A DNA stretch of 64,000 nt from Candidatus Daviesbacteria bacterium. GTDB lineage: Bacteria > Patescibacteriota > Microgenomatia > Daviesbacterales > UBA10151. The translations under genes were made by a program, and so were the position numbers. Positions 3,993 through 59,818 of the stretch are shown in pieces; positions within the stretch are counted from its first letter, which is position 1, and every line of letters begins with the position of its first letter. The notes beneath the pieces are model-generated. The model was given only the letters and a program-made list of their open reading frames with translations, was not told the origin of the DNA and searched no databases. The stretch is from positions 34,021 through 98,020 of the forward strand of contig JAKFWZ010000080.1 of NCBI GenBank assembly GCA_021731695.1. The letters are read 5' to 3'.

Positions 3993-4121
3993 GGGATGAT
4001 TTTAGTAAATGAGGATTACTTTTACCATATGGAAAATCGTCATTGCGATATCATGAAATGAAGAAGCAATCTCAGTACACTCTGGGATTGCCGCGTCGCA
4101 AGCTCCTCGCAATGACGCAAA

Positions 4122-4628
4122 CTAACCCCCAACTCCCAATTTTCTCTCTGCTTTTGTTTGCTCGGCTTTAATATGTTCTTCCTGAAAACTTTGCTCCTTA
4201 TCCTGCTTTTTCACTTGCTCTTCCTGCTTCTTTTGTTCTTCAACCTGAAGTGTTTCCTGTTTCTTTTGTTCTTCTTCGTGCTTCTTTTGCTTATATCTTT
4301 GCTCATCTTCAGCCATTTGATTTAGGAATTGTTTAACATTGGCTAATTTTTTCTGATCTTCTGCTTTACTCTTTGCTTCATTCATTTGCTGCTGCTGATT
4401 TTGTGCAGGGTCAGAAGACGCGGTAAAAGCCTGAGCTGCAGTTTCTAATATATTCCCCATTTCATCTTTTAGATTAAAAGTTTCCTGAGGTTTTTGCGCA
4501 GGCTGTTGAGGTTGTGCCTGAGCTTGCGGATCCAGTGTTTGTTGAGGCTGTTGAATTGGTTGATTTGTCTCAACATCTTCAAATTCATTGGACTCTTCTG
4601 TTGTTGGTGATTTTGTAGTATCAAACAT
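4122..4628 (-). CDS. Q/E/K-rich low-complexity coiled-coil protein
   Basis: ORF with PQQ and EEQKKQ repeats; may be fast-evolving or spurious. Confidence 0.4.
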   Translation of the reverse strand: MFDTTKSPTTEESNEFEDVETNQPIQQPQQTLDPQAQAQPQQPAQKPQETFNLKDEMGNILETAAQAFTASSDPAQNQQQQMNEAKSKAEDQKKLANVKQFLNQMAEDEQRYKQKKHEEEQKKQETLQVEEQKKQEEQVKKQDKEQSFQEEHIKAEQTKAERKLGVGG

Positions 4629-4659: not shown

Positions 4660-4794
4660 AATGAAGCACCACGGGCTTACGCCCGTGGTTTCTTCTAGCT
4701 TCAAGCGGCTAAGGTCGCTTGTCCTCACACTACGTGTTCGGAAAATCTTCATCCGCGAGCTAATGCTCGTGGTTTTAAGATTTGTCGCTATAAA
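4660..4794 (+). repeat. 135-bp structured element, copy 1 (100% identical to 46761-46895)
   Basis: direct comparison of both loci; contains hairpins ccacgggc-ttac-gcccgtgg and cgcgagc-taat-gctcgtg. Confidence 0.9.
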
Positions 4795-4861: not shown

Positions 4862-5458
4862 TCAGTATTCCTTTCGTCCTTCTAGGGCTCTTCTGAGCGT
4901 TGTCTCATCAGCATACTCCAAATCTCCTCCTACAGGAAGCCCGCGGGCAATTCTTGTGACCTTAATTCCAAGAGGCTTTATCAGCCTTTCAATATACATC
5001 GCCGTCGCTTCCCCTTCCATTGTCGGATTTGTGGCTACGATTATTTCAATAACTTCTTCTGATTTTAAACGGGGTAAAAGTTGTTTAATATAGAGCTCTT
5101 CCGGACCGATATTATCTAAAGGAGAAATTACGCCATGCAAGACATGATAAAGTCCTTTAAAATTTGCCCGTTCCATAGCGAGGACATCTAAGGGATCTTC
5201 AACAATCGCAATTAAAGTCCTGTCCCGACTGCCGTCTTGGTCAATTTCACAGGGATCAGTTTCTGAAATATTAAAACAAGTCTGACAAAGAACAGTTTTT
5301 TCCTTTAAAGCAATAGCAGCAGTTGCAAGCATTTCAGCTTCTTCTTTTGGTGCGTGAAGTAAATGATAAGTTAATCGTTGTGCAGATTTGGGACCAATGC
5401 CGGGGAGCCTTTCAAAAGCCTCAATTAAATCTCGAACAACTCGAGGTATAGTAGCCAT
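4862..5458 (-). CDS. recR: recombination protein RecR
   Basis: HhH N-terminus, C4 zinc finger (CQTCFNISETDPCEIC-like), Toprim domain. Confidence 0.9.
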   Translation of the reverse strand: MATIPRVVRDLIEAFERLPGIGPKSAQRLTYHLLHAPKEEAEMLATAAIALKEKTVLCQTCFNISETDPCEIDQDGSRDRTLIAIVEDPLDVLAMERANFKGLYHVLHGVISPLDNIGPEELYIKQLLPRLKSEEVIEIIVATNPTMEGEATAMYIERLIKPLGIKVTRIARGLPVGGDLEYADETTLRRALEGRKEY

Positions 5459-6281: not shown

Positions 6282-6465
6282 CGAGCTTAGAAACAAAGAC
6301 CGTAAAGATTTTGCGAAGGAGCTATCAGGGGAAAAGCGGACTCTGACGATTAGTCAGATGTCCGAAGGGGCAACCTCCCCGATTAGCGACTGAGAAAAAT
6401 TAGGCCGACTTTCCAGCGAGCAGAGTTTTGGTACTTTTGCGGTCAAAAGTACAAAGAAAGAATTT
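6282..6465 (+). repeat. Family-2 about 200-bp repeat element, copy A (TTTTGCGGTCAAAAG hairpin family)
   Basis: shares the tcagggga core and terminal hairpin gtacttttg-cggt-caaaagtac with copies at 9986, 10201, 27355, 42484. Confidence 0.8.
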
Positions 6466-6505
6466 TGCCATCAAAAGTGGCTAAAAAATATAACTGGATC
6501 CCAGA

Positions 6506-7300: not shown

Positions 7301-8224
7301 TTAACCATTTTTTGACGCCTCCAGTATATTTTCCATCAAAGAATAAATAGTCATTGGTCCGACTCCGCCGAATTTAGGGGTATACATTTTAGCTTTTTCA
7401 TAAGTACTGGGGTCAAAATCCCCTAGGCCTACATCTATTAATATTGCACCCTCTTTTATCATTTCGGAATTAACCAGACTCTGAACTCCGGTGCAGGAAA
7501 TAACCACATCTGCTTCCTGCAAATCATCAAAATTGCAGTCAGGATTTCTTTTATCGAGGCGCAGGATTTTATGGGCATTTTTCATACTTAATTGCTCAAC
7601 TAAAGGTTTTCCCACTTCGCCTTCTGAACCGACAACCCCAAAAACTGTTTCTTTATACCAATTTTCGTCATCGCGAAGCGAGATCGCGGAGGCGTCATCG
7701 CGAAGCGAGATCGCGGAGGCGTCATCGCGAGGTGCTTTCTCCGAAGCAATCTCAGAGCTTACGGGGATTGCTTCTTCACTTCGTGATATCGCAATGACTT
7801 CTTCCAGAATCTTCATAACACCCAAAACAGTCGCTGAGACAAATGGGCTGTCTTCTTTCATTCCGTCAATATCTTTTTTCGAATCAATTAAATTAATCAA
7901 ATCCCATTTTGTTTTATCTTTCAAAAAGTCTCTGCTCAGAGGAAGTTGAATCATTATCCCCTTAACCTCGTCGGTTTCGTTTAAACTCCGAATCTTTTTA
8001 GCAACATTTTCAAAGGAAGTATTAACAGAAAATTTCATAGGCAAAAAGTCGATGTAAAATTCATCGGCTTTTTTCTGCTTCATTTGGGTATATAAAAGAG
8101 AATTGGGATCACTGCCGATTAAAATGCTCACTACAAGAGGCCGTTCCTTTAAGGCACCTAATTTAGTTTTTAATTTGTCACCCAGCCTATCAGCTAAAGC
8201 TTTTCCGTCAATAATTTGAGACAT
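7301..8224 (-). CDS. folD: bifunctional methylenetetrahydrofolate dehydrogenase/cyclohydrolase with tandem in-frame element insertion
   Basis: FolD signature (IIDGKALA, QLPLP-like, GVGPMT); insert 7666-7803 encodes AIPVSSEIAS...[20 protein letters not shown]. Confidence 0.85.
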   Translation of the reverse strand: MSQIIDGKALADRLGDKLKTKLGALKERPLVVSILIGSDPNSLLYTQMKQKKADEFYIDFLPMKFSVNTSFENVAKKIRSLNETDEVKGIMIQLPLSRDFLKDKTKWDLINLIDSKKDIDGMKEDSPFVSATVLGVMKILEEVIAISRSEEAIPVSSEIASEKAPRDDASAISLRDDASAISLRDDENWYKETVFGVVGSEGEVGKPLVEQLSMKNAHKILRLDKRNPDCNFDDLQEADVVISCTGVQSLVNSEMIKEGAILIDVGLGDFDPSTYEKAKMYTPKFGGVGPMTIYSLMENILEASKNG

Positions 8225-8278
8225 TACTATTAGTATATCTTATTGACACAGGAAAATTAAGCCTTATAATATTATATT

Positions 8279-9985: not shown

Positions 9986-10160
9986 CTTCCACTTTTGACG
10001 CAAAAGTGGAGCAAAACATACTCGCTGGAAAGTCGACCTAATTTTATTCAGTCGCTAATCGGGGAACCTTACCCCTTCGGCTTTTTTGCTAATCACAAAA
10101 AACCGAAATCCCCTGATAGCTCCTTCATAAAATCTTCACGGTCTTTGTTTCTAAGCTCGT
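9986..10160 (-). repeat. Family-2 repeat element, copy B (inverted orientation)
   Basis: reverse complement matches copies A/D/E; hairpin variant ccacttttg-acgc-caaaagtgg shows compensatory changes. Confidence 0.8.
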
Positions 10161-12238: not shown

Positions 12239-12670
12239 TTAGTCATGATGGATGCCTAGGAGATGACGGGTTCCGTGTTCAACCAAAAACCTTAATTCCT
12301 CTTCAATTGAAACTCCTTCGATCGCTGCATCTTTGATGATTTGAGGATATGAAATCAAAATATCTCCAAGCCTTAAAACTTTATCCGGCGCTTTTACGAA
12401 TCCTACTTTTGGAATATGTTGAAGGCTTGATGTTGTTGAAGGATCTTCGAGCGGAAAAGATAAAATATTTGTGGTTGCATCCTGACCGCGGAATTTTTTA
12501 TTGATCTCATGCATTTTGCGGTCGCCAACAACTGCGACACCTATTTCTAGATTTCCATGAACATGATGCTGTTTTAAAATCTCTAAAACTGTTGCCTGAA
12601 TTCCTAATTTATTAACCGGATACTTTGGATCTGAATTAACGACGATATTAATCATATATAAAAGCGTCAT
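12239..12670 (-). CDS. ybeY: rRNA maturation RNase YbeY
   Basis: HGTRHLLGIHHD zinc-binding motif near C-terminus; start codon overlaps a Family-1 element. Confidence 0.75.
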   Translation of the reverse strand: MTLLYMINIVVNSDPKYPVNKLGIQATVLEILKQHHVHGNLEIGVAVVGDRKMHEINKKFRGQDATTNILSFPLEDPSTTSSLQHIPKVGFVKAPDKVLRLGDILISYPQIIKDAAIEGVSIEEELRFLVEHGTRHLLGIHHD

Positions 12671-12744
12671 TGCGAGGAGTGAAACGACGTGGCAATCTTG
12701 ATTAAATCAGGATTCCTACGCGCATTTCATGCGCTCTGAATGAC
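12666..12744. repeat. Family-1 palindromic element, intergenic copy
   Basis: gtcattgcgagg ... ggcaatcttgatt ... aggattcctacgcgc-atttcat-gcgctctgaatgac. Confidence 0.8.
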
Positions 12745-13203: not shown

Positions 13204-13308
13204 GTCATTGCGAGGAACGACCTGCCTACCGTCAGGCAGGAGTGACGTGGCAATCTTGATTAAAGCAAAATCAGGATTCCTACGCGCACTCTGTGCGCTC
13301 TGAATGAC
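13204..13308. repeat. Family-1 palindromic element, intergenic copy
   Basis: gtcattgcgaggaacgacctgcctaccgtcaggcagg ... gcgctctgaatgac. Confidence 0.8.
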
Positions 13309-23527: not shown

Positions 23528-23551
23528 TGCTGAATTGCTAAATTGTTATTC

Positions 23552-23650
23552 GTCATTGCGATATCACGTAGTGAAGAAGCAATCTCAGTCTCTCTGGGAT
23601 TGCCGCGTCAGCCAGAGGCTTCCTCGCAATGACGCTTCGCTCGCAATGAC
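23552..23650. repeat. Family-1 palindromic element in thyA 5' leader
   Basis: gtcattgcgatatcacg ... gaagcaatctcag ... cctcgcaatgac gcttcgctcgcaatgac. Confidence 0.8.
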
Positions 23651-25591: not shown

Positions 25592-25826
25592 GTCATTACG
25601 AGGAACGACCTGCCTGACGGCAGGCAGGAGCGACGTAGTAATCTTGATTCTGTCATTCCGGTGAAAACCTGCCTGACGGCAGACAGGCCGGAATCCAGGC
25701 AAAAACATCTGGATCCCAGATCTCCCCTTGTCAAAATGCTTTGCATTTTGCAAGCGACCTCCTGGCTACGCCAGTCCGGTAGTCTGGGATGACAATCGAG
25801 ATTGCGACGCTAACGCTCGCAATGAC
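25592..25826. repeat. Family-1 composite palindromic element (5 nested modules)
   Basis: gtcattacgagg ... ctgcctgacggcaggcagg ... gtcattccgg ... ccggaatccagg ... ctgggatgac ... ctcgcaatgac. Confidence 0.8.
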
Positions 25827-27354: not shown

Positions 27355-27530
27355 GCGAGCTTGAAACAAAGCGCGTATAGAATTTTTGAGCGAGTTATCA
27401 GGGGATTTCGGTTTTTTGCGATTAGCAAAAAAGCCGAAGGGGTAAGGTTCCCCGATTAGCGAACGAAAAAATTTAGCGCGACTTTCCGCGAGTAGAGTTT
27501 TGCTACTTTTGCGGTCAAAAGTAGGAAGAA
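27355..27530 (+). repeat. Family-2 repeat element, copy D
   Basis: tagaatttttgagcgagttatcagggga ... gctacttttg-cggt-caaaagtag; followed by a Family-1 module at 27541-27589. Confidence 0.8.
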
Positions 27531-27581
27531 AAATAAACAAAATCAAGATTGCCACGCCACTTCGTGGTCTCGCAATGACAA

Positions 27582-29713: not shown

Positions 29714-31921
29714 TTATGCGTTGGCAATAGCCGGATCTTTAGGTTTGGTCCACGAAGCATATTTGCAATTAGGATAATTTTTACATCCGAAAAATGTCTT
29801 GCCTCTTTTAGTTTTTCTTACTACAACGTCCCCTCCGTCATCCGGACATTTTACATCAAGTATTTGTTCAATTCGCTCGGTGTGTTTGCAATCGGGGAAT
29901 CCTGAACAGGCAAGGAATTTACCAAATTTTCCAGTTCTAACAATTAATTGCTTTCCGCATTTTGGACAATTTTTATCAACAGTTTCAACTTCAAGCACTA
30001 CCCTTTCTGCAGTTTCTTCAATAGTTCCGAGCTTTGCTGAAAGAGGCTTAAAATAAGTTGCTACAGTTTCTTTCCATTCCTTTTCTCCTCTTGAAATATC
30101 ATCCAATGAATCCTCCATTTGAGCCGTAAATTGATAATCAAATAGTTCAGGAAAATGCTTCATTAAGAAATCATTAACGGTCATTCCGAGAGAAGTCGGA
30201 TTAAATTTACGCTCAGTTTTTTCAACATAATACCGATCCTGAATTGTTGAAAGAATCGGAGCATAAGTCGATGGGCGACCAATTCCCAGTTCTTCAAGTT
30301 TTTTAACAAGTGAGGCTTCGGTAAATCTGGGAGGAGGTTGAGTGAAATGCTGAAGTGGCTTAATTTCTTTTTGTTCTAAAGCTTCACCTTCTGTTAAATT
30401 AGGAATCTTTTGATCTTCAGCTTTATTTTTTTCTTCGCCTTCAACCTTTTCCTCTTCCTCTTCTTCTTTATCAATTCCGTAAACTTTAAGCCATCCGGGA
30501 AATTTTAATTGTGAACCAGTTGCTCTTAAATTGTATTCGTCATCGCGAAGCGAGATCGCGGAGGCGTCATTGCGAGCCGCAGGCGAAGCAATCTCAGAGC
30601 TTACTGGGATTGCTTCTCCACTTCGTGGTATCGCAATGACGTCAACTGAAGTTTGATCAAATACCGCATCATTAACTTGCGAAGCAACTGTTCTCTTGAA
30701 TATGAGGTCATAAAGTCTTTTGTGATCACGGGTAAAATTATCTCCTTTTAGCTTTTCAGAATTTAAATTCACATCTGTAGGCCTGATTGCTTCGTGAGCT
30801 TCCTGTGCATTTTTTGATTTAGCTTTGTAGAAGCGCGCTTGAGCTGGCAAATATTCTGCCCCTAAATTTGCAGAAATATAATCTCGTGCCATTCCCAAAG
30901 CTAAAGTTGAAAGATTGACGGAATCAGTTCTCATGTAGGTTATATATCCCTGCTCATAAAGGTTTTGAGCAATCATCATAGTTTTTTTCGCAGACATACC
31001 TAGTTTATTGCCTGAAGTTTGCTGCAAGGTTGAAGTGGTAAATGGCGGAGCAGGAGACCGTTTAACTTCTTTTTTAGTAATGGCTCTAACTGAATAAGCA
31101 CTTTGCTTAAGGTTTCCAACGATTTTTTCAGCCTCATCACTATTGTTTATAACTGCCTTTTCCCTGTTGATTTCCGTAAGTTGGGCTGTAAAAACCTTCG
31201 ACTCTTTCGACCCCTCCGACTCCTTCGAATCTAGCAATACTTCTATACTCCAATATTCGTTAGCTTTAAACGCTTCGATCTCGCGCTCACGCTCTACGAT
31301 TAAACGCAAAGCCACAGATTGTACACGACCCGCAGACAGACCTCTTTTTATTTTTTTCCATAATACCGGAGAAAGTTTATAACCGACTAAACGATCCAAA
31401 ACTCTGCGTGCTTGTTGAGCATCGACCAGCTGCAGATTAATTTCGCGCGGATGCTCAAAAGCTTCCATAATTGCGTTCTTTGTAATTTCATGGAATTCAA
31501 CACGCCGAATGGACGGTAGATGACCGATGATAGAAGATGGTTTTTTGAGAGTAGAAGATTGAGAATTGATTTTCTTATCTACTTTCAATCCTCCATTTTC
31601 CGCCCCTACCTTCAATTTTCTATTTTCCATCGTCATAATCTGAGCTAAATGCCAGGCAATTGCTTCTCCTTCACGATCAGGGTCGGTGGCCAGATATAAA
31701 ACATCTGCACCCTCCATCATCTTTTTTAATTCATTAACTTTCTTCTTTTTATCTCGCGGGATTATATATTTAGGCTCAAATGTTTCCTCGTCAACTCCGA
31801 TTTCAGCTTTTGGCAGATCACGGATATGACCCATCGAAGCTTCGATTTTATAATTCTTACCTAAAAATTTTGAAAGTGTTCTCGCTTTTGTAGGCGATTC
31901 GACGATTACAACGTTTTGCAT
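29714..31921 (-). CDS. topA: DNA topoisomerase I with in-frame element insertions
   Basis: Toprim (IVESPTKA), catalytic Tyr region, C-terminal C4 zinc ribbons; inserts at 30538-30641 and 31196-31233. Confidence 0.92.
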   Translation of the reverse strand: MQNVVIVESPTKARTLSKFLGKNYKIEASMGHIRDLPKAEIGVDEETFEPKYIIPRDKKKKVNELKKMMEGADVLYLATDPDREGEAIAWHLAQIMTMENRKLKVGAENGGLKVDKKINSQSSTLKKPSSIIGHLPSIRRVEFHEITKNAIMEAFEHPREINLQLVDAQQARRVLDRLVGYKLSPVLWKKIKRGLSAGRVQSVALRLIVEREREIEAFKANEYWSIEVLLDSKESEGSKESKVFTAQLTEINREKAVINNSDEAEKIVGNLKQSAYSVRAITKKEVKRSPAPPFTTSTLQQTSGNKLGMSAKKTMMIAQNLYEQGYITYMRTDSVNLSTLALGMARDYISANLGAEYLPAQARFYKAKSKNAQEAHEAIRPTDVNLNSEKLKGDNFTRDHKRLYDLIFKRTVASQVNDAVFDQTSVDVIAIPRSGEAIPVSSEIASPAARNDASAISLRDDEYNLRATGSQLKFPGWLKVYGIDKEEEEEEKVEGEEKNKAEDQKIPNLTEGEALEQKEIKPLQHFTQPPPRFTEASLVKKLEELGIGRPSTYAPILSTIQDRYYVEKTERKFNPTSLGMTVNDFLMKHFPELFDYQFTAQMEDSLDDISRGEKEWKETVATYFKPLSAKLGTIEETAERVVLEVETVDKNCPKCGKQLIVRTGKFGKFLACSGFPDCKHTERIEQILDVKCPDDGGDVVVRKTKRGKTFFGCKNYPNCKYASWTKPKDPAIANA

Positions 31922-32073
31922 GTTTTTATATAGTACCAGACAAATTGTGGCCTAGGAATTCTACACTAGCTGTCAAGTGTCGGATTGTTAAATTGCTCAA
32001 TTGTTAGATTGTTGAATTGTTAAAAAACAATTGAACAATGAGTGAGCGTAGCGAACGATAACAATGAAACAAT

Positions 32074-42483: not shown

Positions 42484-42700
42484 TGAACGCAGCGCCGTTT
42501 GAGTTTAAAGTTTTTGTCTAAGAACAAAGCGCGTTTAGAATTTTTGAGTGAGTTGTCAGGGGATTTCGGTTTTTTGTGATTAGCAAAAAAGCCGAAGGGG
42601 CAGCCTCCCCGACTAACGAACAAAAAAATTTAGCGCGACTTCTCGACAAAAAGAGTTTTGCTACTTTTGCGGTCAAAAGTAGAAGAAAGAAAAGAAAAAA
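42484..42700 (+). repeat. Family-2 repeat element, copy E
   Basis: tagaatttttgagtgagttgtcagggga ... gctacttttg-cggt-caaaagtag; Family-1 module 42701-42739 follows. Confidence 0.8.
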
Positions 42701-42747
42701 ATCGAGATTGCCACGTCGCCTTTGGCTCCTCGCAATGACAAACATTT

Positions 42748-43959
42748 ATGACTAACATTATTAAACTTCCTGGACTAATCGATACTCACGTCCATTTACG
42801 CGAACCCGGTCTTACGCATAAAGAAGACTTTGAGTCAGGCACAAAAGCTGCAATTGCAGGCGGATACACAGTTGTTTTAGATATGCCCAACAACCCAAAC
42901 CCAATTACCAATCCCGAAGCTTTAGCTGAGAAAATAAAATTAGCTGAGGGCGTCATTGCGATATCACGCAATGAAGAAGCAATCCCAGCAAGCTCTGAGA
43001 TTGCCGCGTCGCCACGTTCAGTTAACATGAATGTGGCTCCTCGCAATGACGATACAAATACCCTCGCCCTCAAGGGAGAGGGCCAGGGTGAGGGGTATTC
43101 CAGAATCTACTGTGACTTAGGTTTTCATTTCGGCGCCTCAGAAGAAGCAATTAAATATTTCGGGGATGTTCAGGAAAAAGTCTTTGGTTTAAAGGTTTAT
43201 ATGAACCACACAACCGGTGAACTATTGATAGAAGACAAAAAATTACTTAATGAGATATTTGAAGCCTGGCCCAAAGATAAAGTATTAATGGTTCATGCAG
43301 AAACAGAAACTTTAGCTATGGCTATAGAACTGGCGAAAAAACATGGCAACACTCTTCACGTTTGCCACGTTGCGAGGAAAATTGAACTGGAATTAATTAA
43401 GCAGGCAAAATCAGAAGGGCTTCCAATCACTTGCGAAGTTTCTCTTCATCATCTTTATTTAACCCACGAAGATGAGGAAAGACTCAGGCATTTCGGAATG
43501 ATGCGCCCACCCTTAGCCTCGCCTGAAGATGTGCAATATCTTTGGGATAATATTGATTCAATCGATACGATAGCTTCGGATCACGCACCTCACACAAAGG
43601 AAGAAAAGGAAAGCGAGAAAGTTGTAAATGGTGTGCCAGGATTAGAAACCAGTCTTCCTCTATTACTTAACGCGATTAATGATGAAAGATTAACGATTAA
43701 TGATTTAATCAGACTAACTTCTGAAAATCCCAGAAAGATATTTAATATCCCTAAACAGCAGGATACATATGTAGAGGTTGATCTCGACGCAGAATGGACA
43801 ATTTCTAATGACGGATTATTTACAAAAGCGGGCTGGACACCTTTCGCAGGAATGAAAATAAAAGGAAAAATCCTAAAAACAGTTTTAAGAGGAGAGACAG
43901 TTTTTGAGAATGGTGAAATTAAAAATGCTCCTTCAGGAAAAGTTATTTTCCCAAAATGA
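42748..43959 (+). CDS. pyrC: dihydroorotase with in-frame element insertion
   Basis: metal ligands DTHVHLREPG, amidohydrolase fold; insert 42952-43100 encodes GVIAISRNEEAIPASSEIAAS ... APRND ... LALKGEGQGEG. Confidence 0.85.
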   Translation: MTNIIKLPGLIDTHVHLREPGLTHKEDFESGTKAAIAGGYTVVLDMPNNPNPITNPEALAEKIKLAEGVIAISRNEEAIPASSEIAASPRSVNMNVAPRNDDTNTLALKGEGQGEGYSRIYCDLGFHFGASEEAIKYFGDVQEKVFGLKVYMNHTTGELLIEDKKLLNEIFEAWPKDKVLMVHAETETLAMAIELAKKHGNTLHVCHVARKIELELIKQAKSEGLPITCEVSLHHLYLTHEDEERLRHFGMMRPPLASPEDVQYLWDNIDSIDTIASDHAPHTKEEKESEKVVNGVPGLETSLPLLLNAINDERLTINDLIRLTSENPRKIFNIPKQQDTYVEVDLDAEWTISNDGLFTKAGWTPFAGMKIKGKILKTVLRGETVFENGEIKNAPSGKVIFPK

Positions 43960-46471: not shown

Positions 46472-47104
46472 CTACAAATCTACCTCACCAGATTCAATCA
46501 CCATCACCCAATCTTTTATTCCCAACTGCTTAATGTATTTTCTTAGCGGATCTTTACAATCCCTCTTTGATGCCCAAAGACTTTTCTGCCAAGGTACGAA
46601 CCCCCATTCCCTAAGTCTAAATCTAAGTAAATTCCTGGCTTCTTTCCTTTTTTCCGGAATATCAAACGAAACCAAAGTCCACTTGCCATTCCACTCTTTA
46701 TCGTCTACTTCTTTTAGTTTTGCCCAAATCGCCTTGTCTAAACCTGTATCGCTTAACTTTAATGAAGCACCACGGGCTTACGCCCGTGGTTTCTTCTAGC
46801 TTCAAGCGGCTAAGGTCGCTTGTCCTCACACTACGTGTTCGGAAAATCTTCATCCGCGAGCTAATGCTCGTGGTTTTAAGATTTGTCGCTATAAAAGCTT
46901 TTCTTCGTCAATAAAATCAACTAAACCTTTTTCCCTTAGCCTCTTCAGCGCCTGAGCAAGGAGGGGTTTCTTAATCATTTTGGGATAACCATACAAATAC
47001 TTGTGTGGATGATTGATAAAATCTTCAAATTTTACATAGCCGTCAACAGATTTCTCAAGTGCCAATAAGATTGTATTCGTTAAAGGTTTTTTTGTTCCGC
47101 CCAT
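46472..47104 (-). pseudogene. wHTH plus Cas2-like gene split by insertion of the 135-bp element (paralog of 59025-59570)
   Basis: N-terminal piece 46889-47104 (LLAQALKRLREKGLV) and C-terminal piece 46472-46777 (KWTLVSFDIPEKRKEARNLL ... WQKSLW) are in the same frame; the element introduces TAG/TGA/TAA stops. Confidence 0.6.
46761..46895 (+). repeat. 135-bp structured element, copy 2 (100% identical to 4660-4794)
   Basis: exact identity over 135 bp; length is 45 codons. Confidence 0.9.
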
Positions 47105-53177: not shown

Positions 53178-53306
53178 GTCATTCCCACCGGACCATCAAA
53201 GCTGGGAGGTCGCTTGCAAAAATTGTCATTCAGAGCCCCGAAGGGGCGTGGAATCCTGATTTAAATATAATCAAGATTGCGACGTCACTTTGTTCCTCGC
53301 AATGAC
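53178..53306. repeat. Family-1 composite palindromic element
   Basis: gtcattcccaccggaccatcaaagctgggaggtcgcttgc ... gtcattcagagccccgaaggggc ... aatcaagattgcgacg ... cctcgcaatgac. Confidence 0.8.
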
Positions 53307-54877: not shown

Positions 54878-54993
54878 CTTCGCTAGAGAAATTTCAAGAA
54901 ACAAGTTACAAGTGTCCAATTAATGACCAAATAATAATTTTCAATTTGAATATTTGAATTTGTGATTTGTTTGTTTCTTGTTTCTTGTTTCTT

Positions 54994-55860
54994 ATGAAAA
55001 TTATATTCCTTGGCACTCCTGATTACGTTGATCCAATAATCCAAACTCTTGATGAAAACTTCGAGCTCGTCAAAGTCATTCGCTCTTCCTCCGACTCTTT
55101 CGACTCATTCGACTCTTTGCAGCCTGACCTTTTAGTTGTCGCTTCATTTGGAAAAATAATTCCTCAATCAATTCTGGAAATTCCAAAGTTCGGAGCAATA
55201 AATATTCACCCTTCACTTTTGCCTAAGTACCGCGGTCCTTCACCTCTTCAAAATCAGATTTTAGACGGAGTTACTGATTCTGCAATTTCGTTTATTTTAA
55301 TGGACAGCGAAATGGATCACGGACCGATATTAAAACAAGTGCCTTTTCAGATTTCAGAAAATGACACGTTCCAGAGTCTTTGCGAAAAAATGTTTGCCGA
55401 GTCTGCAAAATATATTTCAGAAGTTGTTCAGAGTTTAGCTGATGGCAGTATTCAAAAAACAGCGCAAAATGAAGAAGACGCAACTGTTACTAAATTAGTT
55501 GAAAAAGAAGACGGATACTTCGATATCGATAACCCTCCGGCTCCAGAAAAATTACAAAAAATGATCCGCGCATATTATCCTTGGCCAGGAACCTGGACAA
55601 AATGGAATGGGAAAATTGTGAAGTTTTTACCTAACCCCTCCGTCATCGCGAAGCGAGATCGCGAAGGCGTCATTGCGAGACCACGAAGTGGCGAAGCAAT
55701 CTCAGAAAGCGAATCCAATAAATCTATCAGCACTGGGATTGCTTCGGAGAAAGCACCTCGCAATGACGCACCTTTCTTAGTGCAAATGGAAGGGAAAAAA
55801 GCCACAGACTTTAAATCATTCCTAAACGGCTACCCTGATTTTCCTCTCAAATCTATTTGA
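54994..55860 (+). CDS. fmt: methionyl-tRNA formyltransferase with in-frame element insertions
   Basis: formyltransferase N-domain (MKIIFLGTPD, NIHPSLLPKYRG); inserts 55087-55118 and 55642-55767 encode SVIAKRDREGVIARPRSGEAISESE ... IASEKAPRNDA. Confidence 0.8.
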   Translation: MKIIFLGTPDYVDPIIQTLDENFELVKVIRSSSDSFDSFDSLQPDLLVVASFGKIIPQSILEIPKFGAINIHPSLLPKYRGPSPLQNQILDGVTDSAISFILMDSEMDHGPILKQVPFQISENDTFQSLCEKMFAESAKYISEVVQSLADGSIQKTAQNEEDATVTKLVEKEDGYFDIDNPPAPEKLQKMIRAYYPWPGTWTKWNGKIVKFLPNPSVIAKRDREGVIARPRSGEAISESESNKSISTGIASEKAPRNDAPFLVQMEGKKATDFKSFLNGYPDFPLKSI

Positions 55861-58855: not shown

Positions 58856-58929
58856 GCCGATGTAGCTCAGTTGGTTAGAGCGCCACTTTTGTAAAGTGGA
58901 TGTCACGGGTTCGAATCCTGTCATCGGCT
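58856..58929 (+). tRNA. tRNA-Thr (anticodon TGT)
   Basis: cloverleaf: acceptor gccgatg/catcggc, D-arm gctcagttggttagagc, anticodon loop tttgtaa, T-arm ggttcgaatcc; 74 nt. Confidence 0.85.
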
Positions 58930-58991
58930 CCTTACGACAATCTAATCTATATATAAAAACATTTCATCTATAGAGACATTTTTCTGCTATT

Positions 58992-59007
58992 GCAAGATTT
59001 TGTATCA
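58992..59007 (+). repeat. 16-bp direct repeat GCAAGATTTTGTATCA (left copy) flanking the Cas2-like cassette
   Basis: exact second copy at 59609-59624. Confidence 0.7.
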
Positions 59008-59024
59008 AGTAATATTCTGTTCTC

Positions 59025-59570
59025 GTGAACCCAAAGGTTAAGGATATTTTACAGATTCTGGGAATTACAGGCTTTATTGCCGCATCAATATTAATGCCTG
59101 GTCTGCCTAAAGTCCTGACTCCATTCTATAAGAAACAATATAAACGCTGGGGTCATTTTAATAAGCGAATTCTTAAAGCCAATTTAAGAAGGCTTCAAAA
59201 AAGCGGCGTTATTGAGGAGTCAGAAAATGCAGGCGAAATAATTTATAAAATCTCAGAAAAAGGGAAATTTAAGTTATTTAAATATCGGCTTGATGATATG
59301 AATCTAAACAGAACTAGTTGGGATAAAAAGTGGAGGCTTGTTGCATATGATATTCCAAAGGGAAAGAAAAACCAGGCTGAAGCTTTCAGAACACTACTCA
59401 AGAAAATGAATTTTATGCAACTTCAAAAAAGTCTATGGTTAACACCATATTCCTGTAATAATGAGATTGAATTCTTAAAACAAATCTATTACTTAGACAA
59501 TCATGTTTCGATATTAACTGTTTCTGAAATTGAAGGCGAGTCTGAATACAGAAAATATTTCGGAATTTAG
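59025..59570 (+). CDS. wHTH plus Cas2/VapD-like domain protein (possibly PaaX-like) with N-terminal TM segment
   Basis: C-terminal WDKKWRLVAYDIPKGKKNQAEAFRTLLKKMNFMQLQKSLW follows the Cas2 pattern (LVxYDI...R...L..L...G.RVQxSVF); paralog of split gene at 46472-47104. Confidence 0.5.
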   Translation: MNPKVKDILQILGITGFIAASILMPGLPKVLTPFYKKQYKRWGHFNKRILKANLRRLQKSGVIEESENAGEIIYKISEKGKFKLFKYRLDDMNLNRTSWDKKWRLVAYDIPKGKKNQAEAFRTLLKKMNFMQLQKSLWLTPYSCNNEIEFLKQIYYLDNHVSILTVSEIEGESEYRKYFGI

Positions 59571-59608
59571 TTGTTACTAGTCATTCATTGATACAATTCC
59601 TTGCAATG

Positions 59609-59624
59609 GCAAGATTTTGTATCA
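59609..59624 (+). repeat. 16-bp direct repeat GCAAGATTTTGTATCA (right copy), embedded in hairpin gatacaa ... ttgtatc
   Basis: sequence identity with 58992-59007. Confidence 0.7.
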
Positions 59625-59685
59625 TGTGAGTGTCTTCCTTGATCTAGTCCTAAATTAAATTTTTTGGTAAAATGCTGCAACGAGT

Positions 59686-59712
59686 GCCGACATGGCTCAG
59701 GAAGAGCACGTC
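59686..59712 (+). pseudogene. degenerate duplicate of the 5' half of tRNA-Thr(GGT)
   Basis: gccgacatggctcagg-aagagcac matches gccgacatggctcagtggtagagcac of the intact tRNA 61 nt downstream. Confidence 0.5.
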
Positions 59713-59746
59713 AGATTAGGTAGGTGTGTTTTTGAAAGTTTAGATT

Positions 59747-59818
59747 GCCGACATGGCTCAGTGGTAGAGCACCTTCTTGGTAAGAAGGACGTCATGGGTC
59801 CGATTCCCATTGTCGGCT
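59747..59818 (+). tRNA. tRNA-Thr (anticodon GGT)
   Basis: cloverleaf: acceptor gccgaca/tgtcggc, anticodon stem ccttc/gaagg with loop ttggtaa, T-arm gtccgattccc; 72 nt. Confidence 0.85.

Follow-up and report, generated by a model that had tools for sequence, protein, structure and literature searches.

What is the short repeat that lies between two open reading frames (ORFs) at 46472-47104 of a Candidatus Daviesbacteria bacterium sequence, and what has it done to the gene around it? The sequence, hereafter the window, is a stretch of 64,000 nt (GCA_021731695.1, contig JAKFWZ010000080.1, positions 34,021-98,020, forward strand), and coordinates below refer to it unless another contig is named. 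A reading of the letters alone, termed here the original prediction, had proposed a 135-bp element, present in two identical copies, one of which splits a winged helix-turn-helix (wHTH) plus Cas2-like gene. We find that the repeat is an inserted DNA of exact size and site, without target duplication and without terminal inverted repeats, with a defined anatomy at its ends, and that it is mobile. The explanation that we favor, and regard as probable, is a 129-nt non-autonomous palindrome-associated transposable element (PATE) of the IS200/IS605 type, moved in trans by a Y1 TnpA transposase and recently inserted into a PaaX_M-like gene.

As had been claimed, 4660-4794 and 46761-46895 do not differ at any of their 135 positions. 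Both lie in + orientation within the window, and 0/100 shuffles of the window produced a match. No third copy of the element was found within the 64-kb window, low-stringency search included. The 135-nt identity thus stood, yet the inserted length did not: ortholog comparison and aligned copies give 129 nt (46762-46890 and 4661-4789), and the remaining 6 identical bases of the window copies are flank, namely the TTAT target and one chance T on each side. The boundaries of copy 2 were set by ortholog gap analysis, by the uninterrupted DNA of an ortholog locus (L002) and by seven aligned copies. The main features are as follows.

46762-46890, minus strand: copy 2 of the probable PATE, 129 nt, top strand AGCGAC...GCTTCAT, between codons Leu71 and Leu115 of the PaaX_M-like gene
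4661-4789, minus strand: copy 1 of the probable PATE, same sequence as copy 2, intergenic
46892-47104, minus strand: 5' host-gene fragment, 71 codons, wHTH part to ...DFIDEEKLL
46472-46761, minus strand: 3' host-gene fragment, LKLSDTG... to the stop, with the entire PaaX_M/Cas2-like domain, in the same frame as the 5' fragment
59025-59570, plus strand: intact 181-aa paralog, PaaX_M family, 26% identity, the comparator of the original prediction

The minus strand from 47104 to 46472 is one 211-codon frame broken by six stops at codons 72, 85, 93, 101, 103 and 109 (TAG, TGA, TGA, TGA, TAG, TAA), all of which lie within the element. This agrees with the original prediction, in which both ORF pieces share a frame and the element supplies TAG, TGA and TAA stops to it. 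The TAG that ends the 5' fragment straddles the junction, its T being host base 46891 (the last of TTAT) and its AG the element's first bases. When the two halves are rejoined, the protein matches Pfam PaaX_M (PF20803, “central Cas2-like domain”) at 3e-19 (69.2 bits vs. a cut-off of 24), and the paralog at 59025-59570 matches the same family at 3e-17 (62.9 bits), so that the wHTH plus Cas2-like description of the host gene is borne out by the PaaX_M match. The joined fragments had also been said to align with this paralog from end to end. The homology is real (E = 8e-14, 26% identity), but the alignment is local and joins residues 46-166 to 47-170, about 120 residues; it is for orthologs that an end-to-end alignment holds, the best of them having 79% identity across 98% of the length.

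With the rejoined protein as query, more than 120 intact orthologs of 148-195 aa, mostly 164-167 aa, were recovered, and those with a named source all come from Candidatus Daviesbacteria or the Patescibacteria group. The junction, ...EEKL[LIV][LI]KLTD..., has no gap in any of 120 aligned orthologs, hence exactly 43 codons (129 nt) are extra in our gene and nothing is duplicated. Joining codon 71 (TTA) to codon 115 (TTA) restores the ortholog junction exactly, and the empty site then reads CTT-TTA-TTA-AAG, i.e., CTTTTAT^TAAAG, with GAAGAAAAGCTTTTAT^TAAAGTTAAGCGAT as the sequence around the insertion point (^). At the locus of the 79% identical ortholog (L002) the site reads CTT CTT CTA AAA without the element; this locus shares MreB-like and DHO_dh-family neighbors with the window, with the DHO_dh-family gene and the PaaX-like gene on opposite strands. 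Look-ups of the exact proteins of MreB, RecR and a 132-aa neighbor returned no records, and no population variant with the empty site was retrieved by them.

Could such a pattern come from the assembly itself, with a repeat misplaced or collapsed? The 135-nt identity exceeds usual assembly k-mers, and two independent assemblies fail at the element. In an NCBI metagenome assembly (L001, GCA_021733385.1; 996-1156), the 5' gene fragment and the element are followed, exactly from the element's right end, by DNA absent from the window, with one substitution in the last 10 nt of the element; this contig is either a third insertion site reached through a chimeric assembly join or a real recombinant. 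A Logan assembly of another run (L008) breaks inside a hairpin of the element. However, two of the four window junctions are reproduced by these assemblies at 99.9% identity, namely the left one of copy 2 in L001 and the right one of copy 1 in L008. Moreover, the flanks of copy 2 are halves of one gene, collinear with the orthologs and with neighbors shared with L002, an arrangement not to be expected from a chimera. We see hardly any room for an artefact.

The fact that the insert is exactly 43 codons long and that both gene halves are undamaged also recalls another idea, in which the gene remains functional and the 129 nt are either removed like an intron or bypassed by the ribosome, which would take off at the UUA preceding the UAG and land on the UUA behind the element. 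Such bypassing, with take-off and landing sites, occurs in phage T4 gene 60, and the flanking UUA codons with a stop right after the first are formally alike. Yet UUA-UUA is the ancestral Leu-Leu of the gene. Other in-frame UUA codons lie at codons 76, 81 and 98, the first of them unpaired and only 12 nt after the stop, where an early landing would soon run into UGA, and the gap is 129 nt vs. 50 nt in gene 60. Rfam gives no group I or group II intron signature, the same element is intergenic elsewhere, and the undamaged halves are already explained by recent insertion. A length divisible by three is most simply put down to chance (1 in 3), and we find a functional intron-like or bypassed gene highly improbable.

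The original prediction had described a recently moved repeat, and its mobility is borne out by copies outside the window. By exact-pattern scans of public genome and metagenome contigs, and by a protein scan with the read-through ORF, the element was found in at least nine unrelated contexts in other contigs, with copies 84-99% identical. All complete copies (n = 7 aligned) measure 128-129 nt. Apart from the contig of L001 described above, the contexts include the following.

L003: Candidatus Daviesbacteria metagenome-assembled genome, 3415-4112; a different, intact PaaX_M gene starts 62-65 nt downstream of the copy
L004: in the ORF of a 506-aa membrane protein, at its 3' end and read through, 84% identical
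L005: truncated at a contig end
L006: without a clear neighboring gene
L007: immediately 3' of the stop of a small gene that looks hicA-like by eye only
P0121: 160-aa NCBI protein whose C-terminus is the element in another frame, back-translating to ...TTTAT
P0122: 57-aa JGI ORF reading through the element

Within the window, copy 1 lies between recR (4862-5458, minus strand) and a 168-aa gene (4122-4628, minus strand). The contig of L004 (CAYMUB010000023.1) is labeled “uncultured Gammaproteobacteria,” while all other copies, like the orthologs of the host gene, indicate Daviesbacteria or Patescibacteria; mis-binning or horizontal spread may be the cause of this label. When the +1 frame ORF was run with HMMER against 1.84 billion representatives, P0121 and P0122 were the only matches, both being read-through cases. 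A look-up did not place P0121 on a contig; its cluster contains one NCBI member only, carried by a contig of 26.9 kb. A search of a 5.8-billion-protein index with both open frames of the element, joined together, gave no match, which carries little weight since the index missed the known read-through ORFs. The phage and plasmid collections held no match to the element, and scans of viral contigs with three patterns gave nothing, or one chance match without the hairpin. Two of about nine known contexts involve PaaX_M/Cas2-like genes (within one for copy 2 of the window, upstream of another in L003), a co-occurrence which may be due to chance, to a preference for AT-rich targets or to a functional link.

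What kind of mobile DNA is it? On the minus strand it reads 5'-TTAT^AGCGACAAATCTT-AAAA-CCACGAGCATTAGCTCGCGG-AT...two inner hairpins...GAAA-CCACGGGCGTAAGCCCGTGG-TGCT-TCAT^-3', with the following parts in the window; guide and cleavage roles are assigned by analogy with IS608.

46891-46894, minus strand: TTAT, putative target and left cleavage motif (C_L, or TAM, the transposon-associated motif) of copy 2; host sequence, codon 71 TTA plus T
4790-4793, minus strand: TTAT target motif of copy 1, adjoining the element's 5' end
46874-46877, minus strand: AAAA, putative left guide, directly 5' of IP_L; AT stands directly 3' of IP_L
46854-46873, minus strand: left subterminal palindrome (IP_L), CCACGAGC-ATTA-GCTCGCGG, its foot 17 nt from the left end
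46806-46848 (approximate), minus strand: two internal hairpins, TCC..ACAC-GTA-GTGT..GGA (beside IP_L) and CAAGCGAC-CTTA-GCCGCTTG
46790-46793, minus strand: GAAA, putative right guide, directly 5' of IP_R
46770-46789, minus strand: right subterminal palindrome (IP_R), CCACGGGC-GTAA-GCCCGTGG, 8 nt from the right end
46762-46765, minus strand: TCAT, putative right cleavage motif, after IP_R and then TGCT

Among the copies, the consensus of the left part is TTAT^AGCGAC(A/T)AATCTT AAAA (CCNCGNG...CNCGNGG) AT, followed by 57-58 nt with two hairpins; that of the right part is GAAA CCACGGGCGTAAGCCCGTGG (T/A)GCT TCAT, followed by a variable flank, and the right-end motif is ...GCCCGTGG-NGCTTCAT. The two palindromes are GC-rich, alike and in the same orientation, with loops on the same strand of GTAA for IP_R and of GTAA, GTTA or ATTA for IP_L. 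IP_R is the same in all copies except L006, which has one substitution, and together with the surrounding 39 nt it is almost invariant; TCAT, GAAA, AAAA and the AT that follows IP_L do not vary at all. Five of seven complete copies have TTAT as their 5' flank, and the 3' flank is variable. Terminal inverted repeats are absent (of the first 25 nt, only 3 agree with the reverse-complemented last 25), and target duplications of TA, TT, TTA and TTT, tried on all copies, were never consistent. A classical miniature inverted-repeat transposable element (e.g., Correia, IS630- or Tc1-derived) was rejected on these two grounds.

Between AAAA and TTAT, and likewise between GAAA and TCAT, the bases are Watson-Crick partners at G1:C2, G2:C1 and G4:C4, with A at two non-pairing positions. 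The chance of all six guide pairings is about 0.003, a rough estimate that allows for register choices.

The hairpins of the element are under selection. The sequence folds far better than shuffled sequence (z = -6.1 as RNA, -7.3 as DNA), and the fold consists of four separate hairpins, two of them GC-rich, where the original prediction had rightly seen stable folding and had counted two. Compensatory double changes at three pairs of IP_L and two pairs of the neighboring hairpin keep the pairing across copies. Paired cells amount to 97% in the aligned copies vs. 30-40% with the partners slid, and the covariation score is 0.135 vs. 0.077 for shuffles, none of 500 shuffles reaching 0.135. With 129 nt the element is too short for a transposase. 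One frame on each of its strands is fully open, but these open frames vary freely where the hairpins covary. Its ATG-initiated ORF (MKHHGLTPVV...) was considered as a real small protein and rejected, for the compensatory hairpin changes rewrite its sequence between copies. An in-frame coding repeat in the PaaX_M-like gene was likewise set aside, there being six stops in the host frame.

Selected hairpins may also belong to a functional RNA, i.e., a small RNA or a terminator/attenuator carried on a mobile cassette, with the hairpins selected as RNA and the insertion a side effect of recombination. The folding and the covariation suit this idea, and on the + strand both GC-rich hairpins precede T-runs, one of them called terminator-like. 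TnpB guide RNAs have furthermore been reported to be encoded by PATEs in some bacteria, e.g., by some Geobacillus PATEs (PMC10055086). On the other side, Rfam gives no family even at E up to 10, introns and IS605-associated RNAs included, the best score on the element being 19.6 bits vs. a cut-off of 114; at gathering score the whole window holds three tRNAs only. There is no promoter-like site in or beside the element, and the contexts and orientations relative to neighboring genes vary. The precise 129-nt boundaries and the fixed 5' tetranucleotide are a signature of transposition, not of recombination, and we consider an RNA cassette quite unlikely.

By analogy with IS608, the probable PATE would move by a TnpA-mediated single-strand mechanism. 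A Y1 HUH transposase (TnpA), encoded elsewhere in the genome, would bind both subterminal hairpins on single-stranded DNA, where the guides AAAA (left) and GAAA (right) would pair with the cleavage motifs TTAT in the flank and TCAT at the element end. The element would be excised as a single-stranded circle with the junction ...GCTTCAT^AGCGACAAAT... and would insert 3' of another TTAT without duplicating the target. Copy 2 would have landed in this way after the TTAT formed by the codons CTT-TTA-TTA of the PaaX_M/Cas2-like winged-helix gene. In IS608 the top strand is on the lagging-strand template (PMC5027513). In the window, both copies lie where the + strand has a negative GC skew (-0.10 and about -0.2), a measure confounded by gene orientation and taken from two copies only; it would place the top strand on the presumed lagging-strand template, consistent with the model as weak evidence.

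Several points weigh against this explanation. A crude HUH...Y (YxxxQ) regular expression, run in six frames over the window and all fetched loci, found no Y1 transposase; no TnpB was found either, the genome data being these 64 kb. Scans of public contigs gave short copies only and no full-length parent element with the same ends. The 5' motif departs from TTAT in two copies (ATAT for L003, TTAG for L007), and the empty site fixes the boundary within 1 nt only, the register having been chosen to give TTAT/TCAT. The bases of the right guide and right cleavage motif (G_R and C_R) also fit an ordinary extended stem, GAAG/CTTC (helix 6), and on the left end A:T complementarity is cheap in AT-rich DNA. 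Finally, the covariation rests on only 6-8 sequences, in which G:U and A:C counts tie 5 to 5 and do not distinguish the selected strand.

Some of these points can be turned toward another class of mobile repeat, either similar to repetitive extragenic palindromic (REP) sequences and bacterial interspersed mosaic elements, moved by REP-associated tyrosine transposases (RAYTs), or similar to the palindromic elements of Rickettsia. The likeness to IS608 would then be superficial, and the disruption of the gene would be the same. The element is indeed mobile, rich in hairpins and devoid of a protein gene, and the motif scan of window and loci left it without a cognate transposase. RAYTs are homologs of IS200 TnpA and recognize a palindrome with an adjacent tetranucleotide (PMC8266576, PMC2817692). 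Like REPs and their doublets (REPINs) with RAYTs, our element combines GC-rich palindromes with an adjacent short conserved motif and probably relies on a Y1 HUH enzyme acting on single-stranded DNA. The window is also full of other hairpin repeat families, some inside intact ORFs, and several kinds of small repeat are thus tolerated. However, REPINs consist of two inverted REPs that form one long hairpin (PMC3337134), whereas the palindromes here are direct repeats; the asymmetric, defined ends, the conserved 5' target and the lack of target duplication fit IS200/IS605 specifically; and the copy number looks low, with 2 copies in 64 kb and few database matches. A different mobile class is a possibility that we take seriously while judging it unlikely, and we keep the IS200/IS605-type PATE as the better account.

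What has the insertion done to the gene? Copy 2 lies in sense orientation with a stop-rich frame toward the gene, so that translation stops short of both the wing of the winged helix and the Cas2-like domain. The host gene is truncated after 71 residues and most likely non-functional, and the splitting and inactivation named in the original prediction are supported by the six in-frame stops together with the intact, collinear orthologs. A 67-codon TTG-initiated ORF (46472-46675), however, spans most of the Cas2-like domain and might be expressed. The two halves are otherwise undamaged and collinear with the orthologs. Because the window copies are identical and the gene halves carry no other defects, the insertion appears very recent, again in line with the original prediction. 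If the element moves as proposed here, a precise excision would leave no scar and make the gene intact again. The disruption is an ordinary transposon insertion, by an element family not previously reported from this lineage.

It follows for annotation that the two ORFs at 46472-47104 should be recorded as a single PaaX_M-like gene, recently disrupted, instead of two small genes, and for assembly that the element breaks and mis-joins short-read contigs, as in L001 and L008. More generally, the element represents a precisely bounded and apparently active family of small transposons in Candidatus Daviesbacteria, a lineage in which mobile elements have hardly been described; in the literature we found nothing on such elements in Patescibacteria. 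If the proposed mechanism is true, the genome should encode a Y1 transposase, and the element would offer a new compact set of left end, right end and target (TTAT) for work on IS200/IS605 and TnpB. A bolder scenario, which we regard as unlikely, is that bacteria of the Candidate Phyla Radiation whose genomes are very small keep an active IS200/IS605-type system, and that the 129-nt derivative serves as a reversible gene switch, perhaps as a TnpB guide RNA, and in a tie with PaaX_M proteins. Were the switch to exist, excision would restore TTAT^TAAAG and the intact ORF; were there a guide RNA, a TnpB-type nuclease guided by the top-strand transcript would keep the element in place by cutting the empty site; and a tie with PaaX_M would mean a functional link between that protein family and the element.

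The window carries further repeats. One hairpin family with the core GTCATTGCGA...TCGCAATGAC, 40-130 nt long, is found at 7664-7801, 30536-30643, 42946-43012 and 55639-55769, with further copies at 4033-4118, 23546-23612, 53250-53306, 12666-12707, 13204-13261 and 25592-25649. Four copies lie inside the uninterrupted ORFs 7304-8239 (minus strand), 29717-31951 (minus), 42739-43956 (plus) and 54958-55857 (plus) and appear to be read through in frame, the other copies being intergenic. This family is probably the “Family-1” of the original prediction and resembles the Rickettsia palindromic elements. Another family of about 125-190 nt has four copies, 87-95% identical and mostly intergenic, at 6282-6475, 10021-10159 (inverted), 27363-27547 and 42523-42705. 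The PaaX_M paralog at 59025-59570 sits between tRNA genes (58856-58929 and 59747-59818) and is bracketed by a 47-nt direct repeat, 77% identical, at 58964-59010 and 59581-59627; the region 58856-59818 has the look of a small cassette that was inserted, or of a duplication of tRNA-flanking sequence. Over 1-52000 the + strand shows a negative GC skew of -0.07 to -0.20, with an exception near 40-44 kb; genes in 1-40 kb are nearly all on the minus strand, and from about 40.8 kb onward both orientations occur.

With the palindromic elements of Rickettsia, and with similar repeats inserted in coding regions, our element has in common that it is a structured repeat of about 100-150 nt within a protein gene and that its length is divisible by three. 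In L004 and P0121 it is also read through, but in the PaaX_M-like gene its six stops in the host frame truncate the protein instead of adding a peptide segment, and its end anatomy points to a defined transposition mechanism.

The resemblance to IS608 is closer. Like IS608 and ISDra2, which are “peel and paste” single-strand transposons, the element has neither terminal inverted repeats nor target duplication. The left end of IS608 inserts 3' of TTAC, and its cleavage sites lie 19 nt before the left palindrome and 10 nt behind the right one (PMC3201880); our element has TTAT as the fixed tetranucleotide 5' of the insertion, and similar palindromes on one strand at 17 and 8 nt from its ends. 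The guide and cleavage motifs of IS608, AAAG/TTAC on the left (G_L/C_L, with A16:T-3 and A17:T-4) and GAAT/TCAA on the right (G_R/C_R) (PMC5934647, PMC3201880), correspond to AAAA/TTAT and GAAA/TCAT at the same positions. In IS608 one guide A is inserted into the protein and the AT after the left palindrome forms base triplets (PMC3201880, PMC5934647, PMC5027513), and a second hairpin after the left palindrome has been reported for IS608, ISDra2 and IS605 (PMC5934647); here too, AT directly 3' of the left palindrome is followed by a second hairpin. Unlike IS608, the element is 129 nt long without tnpA or tnpB, its palindrome sequences are unrelated, an outer stem AAATCT/AGATTT brackets its left palindrome, and its host is a bacterium of the Candidate Phyla Radiation.

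PATEs have been defined as lacking terminal inverted repeats and target duplication, with mutually similar palindromes near their termini and a length too short for a transposase, with a conserved short targeting oligonucleotide on the 5' side and with the 5' palindrome farther from its end than the 3' one (PMC3119063). From the PATEs of Haloquadratum walsbyi and Geobacillus stearothermophilus our element differs in sharing no sequence with them, in belonging to a different phylum and in having no known related full-length element of the IS605 type. Like them, it shows every item of the published definition, and its copies, being 84-100% identical, are comparable to those of the PATEs described as “homogeneous.”

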